Assembly (NCBI GenBank): GCA_000165345.1
Contig: CM000430.1
Location: forward strand, 608,001-672,000
Direction: 5' to 3'
Length of the DNA: 64,000 bases
Positions 7,324 through 44,735 of this stretch are shown here, piece after piece (position 1 is the stretch's first letter; each line of letters starts with the position of its first letter). The translations under genes were made by a program, and so were the position numbers. The notes beneath the pieces are model-generated. The model ran no database searches. It saw nothing but the letters and a program-made list of their open reading frames with translations, and had not been told where the DNA came from.

Positions 7324-8901
7324 ATGTCTGATGAGAACACAAATTCCGTGAATGAATCAGTTTCTGAGCAATACAAAATCAAGGGAAATGAGTCTTTTAA
7401 ATCTGGCAAATATAACGAAGCTATTGAATATTATACATTGGCTATAAAAACCTCACAAGCTTCAAATGAAACCCAAAATAAAAACTTGCATATCTACTAT
7501 TCTAACAGAGCATTGTGTCACATTAGGCTGGAGAACTTTGGCTCAGCAATTGAGGATTCTGGGGAAAGTATCAAATGTTGCCCGAGTTTTTCAAAGGCAT
7601 ATTATAGAAGAGGTATTGCATATTTCAACTTGCTTAAATATTCCCTTGCAAGAAAAGATTTTATGATGGTTTTAAATTTAACTCAGAATGACAGAGATGC
7701 TCAATCAAAGATTCAAATTTGTACCAAATTAATCAAACAAGAAAAGTTTATGGATGCAATTTCAACTGATAGATCAAAATTGATACATGAGACTATAGAT
7801 TTCAGTGCGCCTGGTTTCGTGGTTTCTAATGATTATTCAGGGCCTCACTATAAACCTTTGGCGGATCATTCAAAATTTTCCCAATCAGGCAACGAAACTA
7901 ATTTGAAATCTAGAGAATTTGTTATACCTAAAGTGCCAGATGCTTCTCTTATTAGAGAGTCATTTGTTACTGAGCTAATTGACTTTTTAAAGAATCCAGA
8001 AAATAGGTTGCATAGAAAATACGCATATATGATTGTTTATGATTTAATACAAGTACTTAAAGAGGTTGCTTCTAAGCCACTAGTCAGAATTAATATTGGT
8101 AAACAGGAACATATTACTGTATGTGGAGATATCCATGGCCAGTTCTTTGATCTTTTGAATATTTTTGATATTAATGGTTTACCTTCTGTAAACAACGGGT
8201 ATTTGTTTAATGGAGATTTCGTAGATAGAGGGTCATTTTCTGTTGAAGTAATTCTTGTGCTTTTTACTTTAAAGATTATGTATCCATATCATGTACACTT
8301 GGCTAGAGGTAACCATGAAACAAAGAATTTGAACAAGTTGTATGGTTTTGAGGGAGAAGTCTTAGCAAAATATGACTCAGGTCTTTATGATTTGATTAGT
8401 GAAGCATTTTGTTTCCTTCCTTTGGCGCATGTTATTAATGATAAAGTTTTCGTAGTGCATGGAGGTCTTTGTTCAGAAGATAATGTAAAACTTAGTGACA
8501 TTGAACAGCTTTATTCTAGATGTGAGCCAGCTGATTCCGGATTTATGTCTTCATTACTTTGGTCTGATCCACAACAAAAGGAAGGAAGGTCTCCTTCTCC
8601 TAGAGGAGTGGGATGTAATTTTGGACCAGATGTAACGCTCAATTTTCTTAAAACTAATAACTTGGACTACATCATTAGAAGCCATGAAGTTAAACAAGAA
8701 GGTTATAGCGTTGATCATGATGGAAAATGTATTACAGTCTTTTCTGCACCAAATTATTGTGACTCTATGGGTAACAAAGGTGCATTTATAAAAATACACG
8801 AATACGACCTTAAACCTAACTTTGTTCAGTTCTATGCTGTTCCACACCCACCAGTTCCAGCAATGAAATATGCAAATTCTATGCTTTCATATGGAATGTA
8901 A
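7324..8901 (+). CDS. PPP5: Serine/threonine protein phosphatase 5 (N-terminal TPR repeats plus PPP catalytic domain), 525 aa
   Basis: ATG at 7324. The TPR region (YKIKGNESFKSGKYNEAIEYYTLAIK...AYYRRGIAYFNL) is followed by PPP catalytic motifs GDIHGQ, GDFVDRG, GNHE, HGG and the C-terminal SAPNYC. Confidence 0.9.
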   Translation: MSDENTNSVNESVSEQYKIKGNESFKSGKYNEAIEYYTLAIKTSQASNETQNKNLHIYYSNRALCHIRLENFGSAIEDSGESIKCCPSFSKAYYRRGIAYFNLLKYSLARKDFMMVLNLTQNDRDAQSKIQICTKLIKQEKFMDAISTDRSKLIHETIDFSAPGFVVSNDYSGPHYKPLADHSKFSQSGNETNLKSREFVIPKVPDASLIRESFVTELIDFLKNPENRLHRKYAYMIVYDLIQVLKEVASKPLVRINIGKQEHITVCGDIHGQFFDLLNIFDINGLPSVNNGYLFNGDFVDRGSFSVEVILVLFTLKIMYPYHVHLARGNHETKNLNKLYGFEGEVLAKYDSGLYDLISEAFCFLPLAHVINDKVFVVHGGLCSEDNVKLSDIEQLYSRCEPADSGFMSSLLWSDPQQKEGRSPSPRGVGCNFGPDVTLNFLKTNNLDYIIRSHEVKQEGYSVDHDGKCITVFSAPNYCDSMGNKGAFIKIHEYDLKPNFVQFYAVPHPPVPAMKYANSMLSYGM

Positions 8902-19099: not shown

Positions 19100-21214
19100 A
19101 TGAAAACTGAAACTAAAATTTCTCTGTTTTTTTCTTTTATAATTCTATTATGTGAATACTCTTTCTCTTTGGGTAATATTCAAAATCAATTTGAAAGATT
19201 TAGAACTTTTAATACTAATCATGACTTGCTAGAGCATCATCAAAACCCCAGTTCAAAAATACAAAGAACAAATGAGGATATTAAAGATGGCGTAAGCCCT
19301 TTATTTGAAAAGCCTGAATTAGATGGCAGATACAATAAATATAGAAAAATATACGACAAAAAAAACCAAAATGAAAAAATTAAGAGAAAGGATCAATTAA
19401 AAAATCAAGTGGAAGAACTGCTAGAAGATATGGACTATGTGAAGCAAAAGCAACGGTACTTAGAGTCAGACACATTAGACAAATATTTTTCATTTAGAGG
19501 AGCAGAAGAACATTCAATTGATGATTTGGACTTTGAAGGATTATTTGATCCAGAATATGGAGGAAGAGGAAGAGTTCTGGAAAGTTATAAAATCACCACA
19601 AATGATATTTACAAAGATGAATTAAAACCAAGAAAATATGAATACGCTATTGGAGCAACTCTAAGAGATAAGAGATACGACAAGCATAGAAAAGAGAGCA
19701 ATAATGAAATTGTATTAGTTATTACTCCAAAGAACTTTTTTGCTGATAAAGATGGAAAACTCTCACTTTTACCGAGTTTAGCTCTTAAAATAAACAAAAA
19801 CTCAAAGCTCTCAACATTAATAAAAATGATCCACAAACTCATATCTTATGCTTATCCAGGTATATTAATTGAAAGGATTCGTCATTTAGAAACACAAATT
19901 ATTTTGAATGAAGCACCCAAAACAGCTAAACTCAGTTCTTTAAAAATAAAAAATGGGAACGAAATCTCTGTTACATTTAAAAATGTACCCAAAGATAAAA
20001 AATCAGATAAGTACCATCAAACTCAAGAATTACCTATAGAAGAGCTTCCAATGACTCCAATAGAAAAAGATATTCCTGAGCTTCCTGAGCTGGATGTTCA
20101 GGAAAATCTTGATTTAAGTCAAGGTCCCAGTACTCAACAAAGCTTAGAAACTAAAGTATTAAAATCTAAAGATGATATTTTGAATGAAGATGAAATTTTA
20201 GAACCTAATAAAACCATTGAAAATCCTTTATCCAATAATTATGATTTTAATGTTGGGGATGAATATGAAAAATTAAAGTCTGATTATTTTCAAAACATCA
20301 GAGCTGGCAAAATTGCTATATATAACTCTGATGACGAACCACCAAGACAATCTAATCACAAAGAACATCAATTTGTATTAAGCGATGAGGGAATTGATAA
20401 TGATGGACAAGAAAGAGCAGTAGAGGCTGAGAAAATAGACATTAATGATTCTGATGACTCCTATTTAGGAACTGATATAAATCATTGCAACTATAAGGTA
20501 AACTTCAAACAAATTACATTACCTGTATCAAATTTTACTAATGAAATCGAACGGAACAATATTAAAGATATTTTAACTCTTAACGTAACATTTAGCGAGC
20601 TTGAGCCATGTAATTTGGAAACACTTATTTCAGAAGTGAATAAAATAGCAAAATCCATGGGAAAGAATTATTCTCTTGTTAGAATGGAACATAATGCATC
20701 AAAGAGAGAGCTACTAGCTCTTTCAAAAGATAACGAGAAGCACCATCTTTTGGATCTCGAAATAATTAGGGGTGACGAATTTAATGCATTTTTAATACTT
20801 GAAAAAACTCAAGAATCTGACTATTCAAAGAATGATATTGATAAACATGATGTAGAAATTATATCTGATCTGACTGAGAAACAGATTTCTATTGCGGACT
20901 GTCAGATATACATGACCATTTTTGTTGATTCAGCATCACTTCGCGATAATATTAACCAATCCCTTTCCAAGGAACCCCTTAACAAGAATAGAAGCTTAGG
21001 AAAAGGAGGAAAAAAGCATCTTAAACCAATTAATATATGCACTCAAAGTTATGTTCCTATTAAAAAAGTACTAGAAAAGATCAAGATTATATTGAAAGTA
21101 GATTCAAATTTGAATGAAATTTTCATATGCGGAGATAAAATTGTAGATACTTGTAGCAGTTTACCAGTTTCATTAATCAAATCAGAAACATGTGTTCTTC
21201 GATTTGATTCATAA
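19100..21214 (+). CDS. Secreted Lys/Glu-rich hypothetical protein, 704 aa
   Basis: ATG at 19100 followed by a signal peptide, MKTETKISLFFSFIILLCEYSFS. The body is charged and low in complexity, with no recognised domain, and appears lineage-specific. Confidence 0.6.
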   Translation: MKTETKISLFFSFIILLCEYSFSLGNIQNQFERFRTFNTNHDLLEHHQNPSSKIQRTNEDIKDGVSPLFEKPELDGRYNKYRKIYDKKNQNEKIKRKDQLKNQVEELLEDMDYVKQKQRYLESDTLDKYFSFRGAEEHSIDDLDFEGLFDPEYGGRGRVLESYKITTNDIYKDELKPRKYEYAIGATLRDKRYDKHRKESNNEIVLVITPKNFFADKDGKLSLLPSLALKINKNSKLSTLIKMIHKLISYAYPGILIERIRHLETQIILNEAPKTAKLSSLKIKNGNEISVTFKNVPKDKKSDKYHQTQELPIEELPMTPIEKDIPELPELDVQENLDLSQGPSTQQSLETKVLKSKDDILNEDEILEPNKTIENPLSNNYDFNVGDEYEKLKSDYFQNIRAGKIAIYNSDDEPPRQSNHKEHQFVLSDEGIDNDGQERAVEAEKIDINDSDDSYLGTDINHCNYKVNFKQITLPVSNFTNEIERNNIKDILTLNVTFSELEPCNLETLISEVNKIAKSMGKNYSLVRMEHNASKRELLALSKDNEKHHLLDLEIIRGDEFNAFLILEKTQESDYSKNDIDKHDVEIISDLTEKQISIADCQIYMTIFVDSASLRDNINQSLSKEPLNKNRSLGKGGKKHLKPINICTQSYVPIKKVLEKIKIILKVDSNLNEIFICGDKIVDTCSSLPVSLIKSETCVLRFDS

Positions 21215-21334: not shown

Positions 21335-22330
21335 TTAAGGGCTGGTCCCACATAATAAATTCATGCAATCATAGTATTCTACGGAACAACCATATCTTTT
21401 GCAGCCGACCATACAAAAGTCTTTTGAGTACTGTGAGCATTGAGACATGCATGACACTGGAATACTCGAAACTCCAGCAACTATAGGTCTGTTTACATTG
21501 CAAGCTCTTCCACAAGTCTTTATAAAATACATACTTAATGTAAGAGCACATGGACCATTGCCTTTGAATTCGTAATTTCCAAGAGTTGATGCAGAAGATA
21601 TCAAGGATAGGGGGGCAGGAAGGAAGCCCACTTCGAATTTGAGGTTTCTTTTTTGTTTATGAGTAAGAAGATATTCCACAAGCATTACGCATGAGGAAAC
21701 CACAAGCTCTGATTCCATATCATCGAGACTTTTGAGATTCTTTGCAGTTGAGCAAATATCATCATTATATGCTAGACTAAAAATGTCTGGTTTTTCTTGT
21801 TTAAGTGCTTCCGTCTTAGAGCACAACATTCCCAGTTCTAAAAGAGCAACCAAAGATTGGCAGCAGTTCTAAAATGATTTGAGTTTTTTTTTTGTTAGTA
21901 TTCCGCTAAGAATAATATCCTACACTTTACTTACTGGAGCAGGTTTCAACGTTGTTTCAGGAATTTTTAGTTCCTCACACCTTTTTTCAATAAATTTTAA
22001 GGTAGAGCTAATTAAAAGACTTTTTACACGCTTTAGTTTTATATTTTCACGTTCAAGTAAAAAAAATATCATGAGCTAGTAATTTCTTAGAACTTACTGT
22101 GCTTGGATCGTTCTTAGTGTGATTATGATGAGTTGAATTTCGATTGCTCATTTCCTCTGAGAAATTCATTTGTTTTATATACGGTTGCATTAAAATACGA
22201 GCAAATTTAAAAAATGTTTATAACCAAGTTATGTTTTCAATTTCTTACCACTCATTCTTATGGTTTCGGATCTTATATTTTGGCAGGCAATTAGCAAAAA
22301 CACAACAAAAAATATAAAGTGAATTTTCAT
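21335..22330 (-). CDS. Small secreted cysteine-rich protein, paralog A of a three-gene cluster. Proposed model join(21335..21868,22098..22156,22249..22330)
   Basis: The robust part is exon 3 (21335..21868), which begins NCCQSLVALLELGMLCSK and ends with the 10-Cys module. It lies directly after an acceptor (TACTAAC branch box...TTTTAG), and the in-frame codon before it is a stop. The proposed exon 1 (ATG 22330) encodes a signal peptide, MKIHFIFFVVFLLIACQ, ends in phase 1 and has donor GTAAGA. A 59-nt middle exon (22098..22156, encoding EEMSNRNSTHHNHTKNDPST) restores phase 0 and has donor GTAAGT. Confidence 0.45.
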
Positions 22331-22526
22331 TTTCAAGGATCTTGGAAAATTAGTTTTTGAATTTCCTTTAAATATATGAAGGCTATAATATAAGCTGTTA
22401 AATAGTTTATTTTAGAAAAAATCAGGCTAATCTTAGCATGCAAACTTATTGCATAATACACATGAATTAATAAGCAAAAATAATCAAAAACTATAATTTA
22501 AGTACATACATTCGTTTGCATGTAAT

Positions 22527-22560
22527 CATGTTTACATGCATGCAATGTCAAATGCATGAA
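22527..22560. promoter_or_regulatory. Cluster of GCATGC / TGCATGCA-type boxes in the divergent promoter between cysteine-rich paralogs A and B
   Basis: catgtttacatgcatgcaatgtcaaatgcatgaa lies between the two signal-peptide exons (22330 and 22716). Confidence 0.4.
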
Positions 22561-22715
22561 TATTTACAAAAACTCAGGCCTACAAGTTAAAGATACTCGG
22601 TTAAGAATTATAAGTTCCATTTTATATTTTAGACAAATTTTTTGCTGAAATCACTAAAATTGCAATTTTGTGAAAACAGCAGTTATTCTGAGAAACATAA
22701 TGTAAAATTATCACT

Positions 22716-23678
22716 ATGTTGCATTTCGGCTTTCTTTTAATATTCTTCTTGCTTCCATTTATTGGAAGAACTGCGGATCCTGATTTAAAATTTAAAAATT
22801 TGAATGAATCCAAGAAGGGGTTGGTTAAAGAAGAACCTCCTTTTGCTACCAGCGTTAAAATGAGTGAAAATAATGAAACAATTGTAAGTAAACTTTCTCA
22901 TCAAAACTAATTAGTATAACAAGTTATTTTTCTCCCCTCTTTATAGTCAGATTTTTCAATCTTAAACTCATCAAAATTTAATAATATTTTGTCAGCTGAA
23001 ACTACATGCTCAAGAAAGCTACAAAATAAGGATAAATATCCGAATTGCTGCTCTTCAATTGTTTCAATTTTTGAAACTGAAAGGATTTGCAATCAAAAAC
23101 CTCAGATAGACAAGTCTCTAAATGAAAGCAATGGAGAAATTGCAAGAGAACTATCAGAAATCAAGCAATATTATGATTACCATTGTAACAATACAGAGTA
23201 CCAACTTTTAGTTTCAAAAAATATCACATCAGATGATGTGTATAACTGTATGAGGTATAATGAATTAACTACAAGAAGTACAAATAGCACATTACAGGAA
23301 TTGGATGGAATTAAATTAAAAGATAGTGAATCCATAGTCGACAATCAAAGAGCATTACAAATAACTGGTTGGATGAATAGTTTTGGATTACCTGCAATTT
23401 CTTCGACTACTATGCTTTCACAATCAAGGTTTACTGAGGGCTCATTCATGCATTCAAGTGGAGGTCAAAATTGCTCTCCACTATTAACATTAATATTTGT
23501 TCGTGTTTGTAACTCTATCTGTAATGCCAATAACGACTCTTCTTCTGGAAGAGCATCAATACCTATTTTTTGTTTAAGGGACTGCCAGCCTTTTGCAAAG
23601 TTTGCCTGCTTGCGTGGGTGTAGAACCTTTGGGTGCCATGTTGATATATACACCTGTATGGAACTTATGTGTCAGTGA
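22716..23678 (+). CDS. Small secreted cysteine-rich protein, paralog B; join(22716..22883,22947..23678)
   Basis: Exon 1 (track ORF 22716..22910) gives the signal peptide MLHFGFLLIFFLLPFIG, and its donor is GTAAGT just after ...SENNETI. A 63-nt intron ends in a long pyrimidine tract plus TATAG. Exon 2 is in phase 0 (SDFSILNSSKFNNILSAETTCSRK...PNCCSS...) and ends with the shared 10-Cys C-terminal module. Confidence 0.7.
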
Positions 23679-23730
23679 TTTTGTCAAGGTATTTTGTAAG
23701 GTATAAGAAACAAAAATCTAAAGTAAATTT

Positions 23731-24481
23731 TTACGTAAGCTTGAAGTTACACATTTGGTAACTGCATGCATCAAAAGGTATATTACACCCGAAAAAAGAG
23801 CATCCACGTATGCAAACATGGTTTGCAAAATCCACACAAATTGGGAAGCATGATCTCGGGAATACCTCTTCTTCTACCGTAAGTGCAGTCTCTGCATCGC
23901 ATAGTTTTTCACATACTTTAATATAATGCAAGGAAAGCACAGATACACATATTTTTTGGGTTTGATATTTAAATATATTTCCTTGAGGGGTATCTTGAGG
24001 TCCTCTTAACGATGATGTTGATTGGGGAAGTCTGATATGAGATCCAAATCCTGACTTTATTTGTAGTTTCCTGTCAGTAAAATTCATTTCTTTACAATAT
24101 TCAAAATTTTCATGGTTTTTCCAAGAATTGACATCATCAGAATCTGATTTTTTTAGTATTTGACTACACTCACTATTGAATGCTATAAATTCACTCTTAT
24201 TTCCCATCTCTTCTAGTAGGCCAGTTTCATTATTAGGCCTATTTAAACAAATTTCTTTTGAATAGAGTGAAATCGTTATTTCATTACAGCAGCTCTAAAA
24301 GGAATAAAATTTAATATTTCTTGAACACCTTATAAAATGTTAGATTTCATTGACTCACCTTTAATTCTTTCATATTGTTATCATTGATACTTTCTGAGAT
24401 CAATCTTTGACATTTTCCATCACATTTACATCTTATTAAAAATAACATAATTAAATACAAGATCCCAATAGTATTTACCAT
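23731..24481 (-). CDS. Small secreted cysteine-rich protein, paralog C; join(23731..24294,24359..24481)
   Basis: Exon 1 (ATG 24481) encodes MVNTIGILYLIMLFLIRCKC...NNMKELK, a signal peptide, and has donor GTGAGT. A 64-nt intron ends at TTCCTTTTAG. Exon 2 begins SCCNEITISLYSKEICLNRP... in frame with track ORF 23731..24207 and ends with the same 10-Cys module. Confidence 0.7.
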
Positions 24482-41039: not shown

Positions 41040-41700
<661 letters not shown>

Positions 41701-41709
41701 AGTTTGGTT

Positions 41710-44043
<2,334 letters not shown>

Positions 44044-44735
44044 TTTCAAATTCTTCAATTTACATAAAAATATATATTTCTTCTTTTACTACTCTATTAT
44101 TTATCTTAATTTATATCATAAATCTTTAAAGTTAAGCTATTTTATACTATCTTAATTTATGATGAAGATTTTTTTTTAATATATATTTAAATAATTTCTA
44201 TTTCTCATATATTCAACTTTTTAATTTTTTTTTAATATAAATTTTTAATACTTTATTTTAAGTGACTGCCACTATTAAAAATACTACTACTATTATTACA
44301 TTTTTAGAGGTAATTTTTTTTATTTATTGTAATAAATATAATTTCATCATATTGTTTTATTTTTGCATGTATTATTTAAATTTACAAACTTTTGCCCGCT
44401 GACTTTATTTGCATGCATGCATTTTCGTCTCCAAATTTTTTTGTTCTTATTTAAAAAAAATGGTTTTGTGCATTAATGACTTTGTGGGTTGCGCGGCAAA
44501 TTTGAATATATTTTTTTCTATTGGTTGAATTAAAAAAAAGAATTTAATTAATAATAAATAATTTATTAATAGTTAAAGTGTGAGAAGTAGTGGAAGTATT
44601 ACTTTTATTATCTTTGATAATAATAAGAATATAAATTAAAAATATTGGTCTTTTTTTTTTTTTCTTTCCTATCCCTTTTACTTCCATTCAATTATACTCC
44701 TTACTCTTACCAGAAAAGCAAATAAAGAAGTTTAA

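Follow-up and report, generated by a model that had tools for sequence, protein, structure and literature searches.

The oocyst wall confers environmental toughness and chlorine resistance on Cryptosporidium and, to our knowledge, its protein inventory is poorly defined beyond the nine Cryptosporidium oocyst wall proteins (COWPs). The secreted protein families MEDLE, SKSR, FLGN, WYLE and CpLSP are largely subtelomeric, vary in copy number between species and are expressed in asexual or invasive stages. Plant alpha-hairpinins (CX3C-Xn-CX3C) and the small Tim proteins are built as helix hairpins with twin Cx3C motifs and two inter-helix disulfides. The COWPs are large proteins (538 amino acids in COWP6 and 887 in COWP4) made of tandem type I and type II repeats in which a cysteine recurs about every 10-12 residues; they contain GFR-CR domains, and their predicted folds are rich in beta structure (bioRxiv 10.64898/2026.05.05.722909; PMC12548878). 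Here we describe three adjacent genes of C. parvum chromosome 2, cgd2_3040, cgd2_3050 and cgd2_3060 (genes A, B and C, respectively), with products of 256, 299 and 228 amino acids. They occupy positions 21335-24481 of a 64,000-nucleotide stretch of contig CM000430.1 (the window), which is AT-rich, with about 31% GC. The first of these coordinates is the final base of the gene A stop codon and the last is the A of the gene C ATG.

The trio and COWP1-9 are alike in carrying a signal peptide, in being cysteine-rich and female-specific, and in lacking a transmembrane (TM) domain. In addition, cgd2_3040 shares with COWP1, 4, 6, 8 and 9 the oocyst-wall class of the hyperplexed localisation of organelle proteins with isotope tags (hyperLOPIT) data. 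We put at about an even chance the reading that the three genes encode female-made, secreted, disulfide-stapled helical proteins destined for the oocyst wall as minor components or accessories distinct from the COWPs. Unlike the COWPs, the trio proteins are short (228-299 amino acids), non-repetitive and predicted to be all-helical, and their mRNA is 100-1000 times less abundant than that of COWP1 and COWP8. Membership of the COWP family was rejected, as cysteine spacing is irregular (x11, x3, x16, x3, x7, x3, x4, x6, x4) and Pfam detects no GFR-CR domain. No COWP was recovered among the nine hmmsearch matches from 1.84 billion representative proteins, nor in two word-indexed profile searches.

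Stage-specific expression was assessed with log2 counts per million (CPM) for sorted cells and bulk RNA-Seq, taken from the supplements of Tandel et al. 2019 (PMC6877471). In sorted cells, cgd2_3040 was at the floor in asexual stages (0.96) and reached 7.43 in females in vitro and 5.64 in females in vivo (log fold change, logFC, of 6.5). The corresponding values for cgd2_3060 were 0.96 (floor), 5.59 and 3.93 (logFC 4.6). The same on/off pattern is displayed in that table by COWP9 (1.99 in asexual stages, 7.8 in females in vitro and about 9 in vivo), COWP8 (1.35, 14.8 and 14.05) and COWP1 (5.2, 16.1 and 15.67). Bulk RNA-Seq of sporozoites, 24-h cultures and 48-h cultures gave 4.1-4.6, -3.1 to -1.1 and 7.1-7.3 for cgd2_3040, 9.7-9.9, 1.2-1.9 and 7.1-7.2 for cgd2_3050, and 7.0, 0.1-0.9 and 5.8-6.3 for cgd2_3060. 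A 72-h clustering of quantitative reverse-transcription PCR data placed cgd2_3050 and cgd2_3060 in one expression cluster. Both cgd2_3040 and cgd2_3060 have been listed among female-expressed genes belonging to Cryptosporidium-only orthogroups, in two different groups (PMC6877471), and OrthoMCL also assigns them to separate groups; their paralogy thereby went unrecorded. Public sources already cover the gene models, their splicing, their expression by stage and one localisation class.

That localisation class concerns cgd2_3040. Its transcript, cgd2_3040-RA, is one of 44 genes in the list 'oocyst_wall_LOPIT_submission' (PMC10233709 Data Set S3), which derives from the hyperLOPIT class column and also holds COWP1, 4, 6, 8 and 9 (PMC10233709). 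Proteins of the other two genes, cgd2_3050 and cgd2_3060, were quantified by tandem mass tag mass spectrometry (MS) in excysted oocyst material (PMC12548878 S7). As regards assignment to the oocyst-wall functional class, female expression holds for cgd2_3040 and cgd2_3060, and wall-association data exist for cgd2_3040 only.

Several observations weigh against the trio being wall proteins. The LOPIT membership is second-hand, having been read from code in the PMC10233709 supplement and not from the primary hyperLOPIT data, and the class itself reflects co-fractionation, not microscopy. Neither cgd2_3050 nor cgd2_3060 is in the LOPIT oocyst-wall list, and cgd2_3050 is not among the listed rows of the female-versus-asexual table (PMC6877471). 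The high sporozoite transcript of cgd2_3050 (9.7 log2 CPM) also fits a sporozoite-stage function. Transcript levels of the trio are 100- to 1000-fold under those of COWP1 and COWP8, MS intensity is low (log2 about 17, versus 21.1 for the neighbouring gene product cgd2_3030), and AlphaFold2 confidence for the family is only moderate, with a mean predicted local distance difference test (pLDDT) score of 63. Together, the low mRNA and low MS intensity indicate that the trio is not bulk wall material. A full-text literature search returned no paper naming cgd2_3040, cgd2_3050 or cgd2_3060 in its main text, and no microscopy or purified-wall MS was found in the literature for any of the three proteins. 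There was likewise no sign of the trio among the POWP candidates from older oocyst-wall MS, on the basis of a gene-ID text search made with no comparison of POWP IDs.

The same data could be read to mean that the female or zygote makes these proteins on behalf of the sporozoites, either as cargo of a secretory compartment specific to sporozoites or as luminal oocyst or residual-body proteins, with action at excystation or first invasion and not in the wall. We regard this as rather unlikely, albeit with real points in its favor. Trio transcripts are present in excysted sporozoites, with cgd2_3050 at 9.7 log2 CPM, and the excysted whole-oocyst material in which cgd2_3050 and cgd2_3060 were detected contains sporozoites. 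These two proteins fall outside the LOPIT wall class, and sporozoite proteins are known to be made ahead of time in females (review PMC13657310). On the other hand, cgd2_3040 is classed with the oocyst wall and not with a sporozoite organelle, and the LOPIT crystalloid-body list contains no member of the trio. General invasion-organelle cargo is further argued against by the near-absence of transcripts at 24 h, when merozoite micronemes, rhoptries and dense granules form.

Should the trio indeed be accessory wall proteins, a course of events can be proposed. The genes, an ancient, genus-restricted tandem family, are silent in asexual stages and transcribed in macrogametes (females), and the signal peptide would direct their products into the endoplasmic reticulum. 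The products would be small, secreted, soluble, all-alpha-helical proteins of two domains, in which a predicted N-terminal four-helix unit with 6 conserved cysteines is connected to a predicted C-terminal three-helix unit with 10 invariant cysteines by a putatively disordered linker that opens with an invariant R-x-L-[Q/K]. The helices could be stapled by about eight disulfides among the 16 cysteines, with Cx3C...Cx3C spacing that would fit helix hairpins. Storage would take place together with other wall material in wall-forming bodies. Upon release after fertilisation, the proteins may be incorporated into, or bind to, the cysteine-rich proteinaceous inner oocyst wall, where they would serve as minor non-COWP components or adaptors. 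Proteins cgd2_3050 and cgd2_3060 would be expected at the same location as cgd2_3040.

The three genes were initially singled out in a reading of the DNA letters alone (the original prediction), which described three paralogous genes in minus, plus, minus orientation with a shared ten-cysteine C-terminal module. This description stands. The open reading frames (ORFs) of the last exons align by BLASTP with E = 4e-18 (A/B), 5e-12 (A/C) and 3e-14 (B/C) at 25-34% identity, and the gene models match GenBank. Gene A has the module exactly as C-x11-C-x3-C-x16-C-x3-C-x7-C-x3-C-x4-C-x6-C-x4-C (cysteines 186, 198, 202, 219, 223, 231, 235, 240, 247 and 252), and all ten cysteines are invariant both in a first alignment of 17 family members and in a larger one of 21, drawn from at least ten Cryptosporidium species. 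Also invariant are one Pro, one Gly, and an Arg and Leu situated about 30 residues upstream of the module. Other details of the original prediction required correction. The products are of 256, 299 and 228 amino acids, not 170-290, and the N-terminal half was said to hold a CC pair plus four further cysteines, when in fact one cysteine precedes the pair and three follow it, for a total of six (C...CC...C...C...C). The CC pair is not universal: C. ryanae and C. xiaoi have a single cysteine in its place in their gene C orthologues. Each mature protein has 16 conserved cysteines, an even number.

Alignments delimit the C-terminal conserved region to residues 153-256 of A (21338..21649, minus strand), residues 191-299 of B (RALQI... 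to ...ELMCQ; 23283..23675, plus strand) and residues 116-228 of C (RKLQIKSGF... to ...MCNFKLT; 23734..24072, minus strand). In A this region comprises R-x-L-[QK], a low-confidence linker and then the three-helix, ten-cysteine module as predicted. Signal peptides were called by a crude hydrophobic-core check, which found an N-terminal core of 11-13 residues in each of the three proteins. A similarly crude hydrophobicity check found no TM-like segment beyond this core. The gene B product contains nine N-x-S/T sequons.

Domain searches were carried out with both ORFs and full-length proteins. Pfam scans yielded no family at E<=1 (E<=5 for full-length proteins), with only sub-threshold chance matches to Las1 and DUF1265. 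In keeping with the original prediction, there was no Pfam match corresponding to EGF, Kazal, TSP or defensin folds. A PDB sequence profile search with the module gave 0 matches at E<=10, and the C-terminal module had no significant fold match. From an alignment of 17 sequences, AlphaFold2 modeled the C-terminal region as three helices (33-50, 65-85 and 92-100), for which pLDDT was 75-81 across most of the helical blocks; the model mean was 63. Full-length A, modeled from 21 sequences, was given a four-helix N-terminal domain (residues 45-149), a linker (151-182) with pLDDT of about 30 that begins at the invariant R153-x-L155, and C-terminal domain helices at 185-202, 217-237 and 244-252; mean pLDDT was 63 and the predicted template modeling score (pTM) was 0.38. 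The trio module is likely a new all-helical, 10-Cys disulfide module.

The core of this module, C-x3-C-x16-C-x3-C, runs from the end of predicted helix 1 to the start of predicted helix 2 and resembles the twin Cx3C hairpin motif. The likeness is in the motif only, with pairing suggested by spacing. The intervals C186...C202 and C219...C235 (16 and 16 residues) would be compatible with three staples across one hairpin, for which the spacing predicts the pairs C202-C219, C198-C223 and C186-C235 in A. In contrast to small Tim proteins and alpha-hairpinins, which have four cysteines and two helices, the trio module has ten cysteines and three predicted helices. Moreover, the trio is in the secretory pathway, whereas small Tim proteins are in the mitochondrial intermembrane space. 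Membership of the small Tim, twin-Cx3C or alpha-hairpinin groups was rejected, as neither a Pfam match, including to the small-Tim family, nor a PDB profile match was found.

The distribution of the family was determined by profile searches. With the C-terminal profile, an exhaustive hmmsearch against the 1.84 billion representative proteins gave nine matches under a cutoff of E<=1e-3; every one reached E<=1e-10 and came from Cryptosporidium. They are of 143-286 amino acids and include those of C. muris and C. andersoni (CMU_030430/cand_026790) and C. serpentis. When about 5.8 billion proteins were searched by a word-indexed profile method, the matches were Cryptosporidium proteins only, and a second such search with a 21-sequence full-length profile found nothing beyond the family up to E = 1. 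The family is restricted to Cryptosporidium and is so far without a name. Current views are not overturned by it; the trio fills in an unnamed family. As a compact, genus-wide family absent from hosts and other apicomplexans, it offers tractable candidates for tagging and knockout, and might also be of use as a marker specific to Cryptosporidium or as a target for blocking transmission.

A six-frame hidden Markov model (HMM) scan detected exactly three copies in the 64 kb window and three per locus in the intestinal species. C. felis, C. ryanae, C. canis, C. meleagridis and C. ubiquitum all retain the order and orientation HMG-box gene - C - B - A - cgd2_3030. The locus is chromosome-internal; in C. 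meleagridis it maps about 630 kb into a chromosome record of 980 kb. A bootstrapped neighbor-joining tree resolved three paralogue clades, each of which tracks the species tree. The protein of C. serpentis, a gastric species, joins clade A with 94% bootstrap, so that the split of A from B/C predates the split between gastric and intestinal species. Gastric species have two family slots at the locus, versus three in intestinal species. In C. muris RN66 the A-type copy (DS989742.1, about 7900-8570, plus strand) resembles a pseudogene, with in-frame stops, frameshifts and several conserved cysteines changed to Tyr, Phe or Asn, and only fragments of it are found by the HMM (E 2e-6). C. serpentis has an intact A-type gene at the same position (356-1265 of its locus sequence).

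Orthologues were compared by the ratio of nonsynonymous to synonymous substitution rates (dN/dS) with C. meleagridis and C. ubiquitum, respectively. Values were 0.17 and 0.06 for gene A, 0.28 and 0.16 for gene B, and 0.23 and 0.25 for gene C, as compared to 0.015 and 0.015 for the neighboring HMG-box gene and 0.38 and 0.38 for cgd2_3030. The family is old and constrained by purifying selection. The original prediction had taken the divergence among the paralogues for rapid evolution and had proposed calculating orthologue dN/dS; the resulting range of 0.06-0.28, below that of cgd2_3030, speaks against this, and the paralogues are divergent because the duplications are old.

Selection also bears on a possible role of the trio in fertilisation, in which macrogamete secreted or surface proteins, perhaps as a heteromeric set of three, would attract or attach the male gamete or block polyspermy. 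We find this improbable. Female-specific expression and the strict retention of three paralogues in fixed order across species are in line with it, whereas dN/dS of 0.06-0.28 is not, as gamete-recognition proteins usually evolve fast. Early female secreted proteins have been hypothesized to act in fertilisation (review PMC13657310), yet the trio proteins have no membrane anchor, and a role after fertilisation is indicated by the LOPIT wall class of cgd2_3040 and by the fact that protein and mRNA persist into mature oocysts and sporozoites.

The trio and the MEDLE, SKSR, FLGN, WYLE and CpLSP families are alike in being Cryptosporidium-specific, signal-peptide-bearing, clustered paralogues without a known fold. 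The trio differs from these families in its chromosome-internal position, fixed three copies (in intestinal species), purifying selection and female-specific expression. A rapidly diversifying, host-directed effector role in micronemes or dense granules, like that of MEDLE or SKSR, had been raised from the signal peptide, small size, lack of a known domain, tandem arrangement and lineage restriction, but it is very improbable and was rejected because of dN/dS (purifying selection, weaker on the neighbor cgd2_3030), fixed copy number (one-to-one orthologues in every intestinal species examined) and stage of expression (transcripts specific to females and 48 h, low at 24 h and no higher than the detection floor in sorted asexual stages, which are those that remodel the host cell). 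The chromosome-internal locus also argues against it.

Gene models were built from the DNA, starting from initial ORFs at 21335-21853 (minus), 22989-23678 (plus) and 23731-24207 (minus). Gene A (21335..22330, minus strand) is identical to GenBank cpbgf_2003040/CPATCC_0027750 and has four exons: 22330-22249, which encodes the signal peptide and ends in a phase-1 donor, 22156-22098, 22030-21935 and 21868-21335, which includes the stop codon. Its introns are at 22248-22157 (92 nt), 22097-22031 (67 nt) and 21934-21869 (66 nt). Gene B (22716..23678, plus strand; identical to cpbgf_2003050/CPATCC_0027740) consists of exon 1 at 22716-22883, with the signal peptide and 37 residues, and exon 2 at 22947-23678, with the stop codon, separated by an intron at 22884-22946 (63 nt). 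Gene C (23731..24481, minus strand; identical to cpbgf_2003060/CPATCC_0027730) has exon 1 at 24481-24359, with the signal peptide and first cysteine, an intron at 24358-24295 (64 nt) and exon 2 at 24294-23731, with the stop codon. These models and their splicing are not new, being present in current annotations based on telomere-to-telomere assemblies. The 2004 Iowa II models (164, 142 and 158 amino acids) lack the first exons, with as much as half of each protein missing, and proteomics using such old models would miss peptides from the N-termini. Many deposited orthologue models are N-terminally truncated or mis-spliced as well: the C. meleagridis A model (228 amino acids) has no signal exon, the C. 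hominis UKH1 A model (202 amino acids) skips exon 3, and the C. felis A model has a different exon 2/3 junction.

Comparative evidence backs splicing of the trio introns. GT..AG is kept at all five introns in C. meleagridis and C. ubiquitum, and intron lengths differ between orthologues, mostly by non-multiples of three, with flanking reading frames preserved. The gene B intron also keeps GT..AG while its length shifts by non-multiples of 3 in orthologues. Signal-peptide first exons are readable in C. felis, C. canis, C. ryanae, C. serpentis and C. muris. The gene B intron has the position of gene A intron 2, in phase 0 and three residues ahead of S[IL]L.SS, and the gene C intron that of gene A intron 3, also in phase 0 and one residue ahead of the CC pair. 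As the introns of B and C match different introns of A, the ancestor was multi-intronic and the copies lost different introns. Inheritance of the introns from an already spliced ancestor, as originally proposed, is thus supported by the pairwise matching positions and by the splice sites conserved in C. meleagridis and C. ubiquitum. Of the layout proposed with it, the separate signal-peptide exon holds for all three genes, while a single intron per gene does not, given the three introns of gene A, and neither does a single shared intron position. The trio cleanly illustrates how duplicated genes have lost different introns in a genome that has few of them.

The conserved C-terminal region begins with the invariant R-x-L-[Q/K], which stands at the head of the predicted disordered, otherwise variable inter-domain linker. 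It lies at residues 153-156 of A (21649-21638, minus strand), 191-194 of B (23283-23294, plus strand) and 116-119 of C (24072-24061, minus strand), with a family consensus of R-[NKAS]-L-[QK]-[FILV]. Identity with the Plasmodium export element (PEXEL; RxLx[EQD]) or the Toxoplasma export element (TEXEL; RRLxx), motifs that a Golgi/ER aspartyl protease cleaves, was rejected, as the fifth position is hydrophobic and a second Arg is lacking. The motif could be a short linear motif for cleavage or sorting. A more speculative proposal, to which we give little credence, is that it is a secretory-pathway maturation site at which precursors are cut into two disulfide-stapled modules, the 10-Cys module being a hitherto undescribed fold with a part in oocyst wall or suture assembly, whether by cross-linking, by capping or as a heterotrimeric A/B/C complex. 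If so, the cleaved 10-Cys module would be a genus-specific, non-COWP determinant of transmission-stage resilience.

Genes A and B share a divergent promoter region of 385 bp (22331..22715). It holds six TGCATG/CATGCA matches, as compared to 1.03 per kb window-wide, in a cluster at 22437-22558 that includes a full TGCATGCA at 22537. Five other species also have a TGCATG cluster between these two genes. The sequence TGCATGCA is the documented ApiAP2 site 'AP2_1', which is bound by cgd2_3490 (PMC3734150). The cluster may have a regulatory role in the A-B promoter.

Two other features of the window were noted. The neighboring gene cgd2_3030 (19100-21214, plus strand) is a 704-amino-acid ORF with a signal-peptide-like N-terminus and no Pfam domain; it has 57% amino acid identity to its C. 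ubiquitum counterpart and evolves faster than the Cys-rich trio. Further along, a (GTA)x195 repeat at 41056-41641 encodes a long poly-Thr run, read as (ACT)n on the minus strand, and accounts for a GC-skew spike (0.54) at 40-42 kb. The repeat adjoins a signal-peptide ORF at 41710-44058 (minus strand) that also has Thr runs, which makes this a mucin-like gene. As the upstream ORF does not share the frame of the Thr run, the gene model at 41056-44058 deserves a check.

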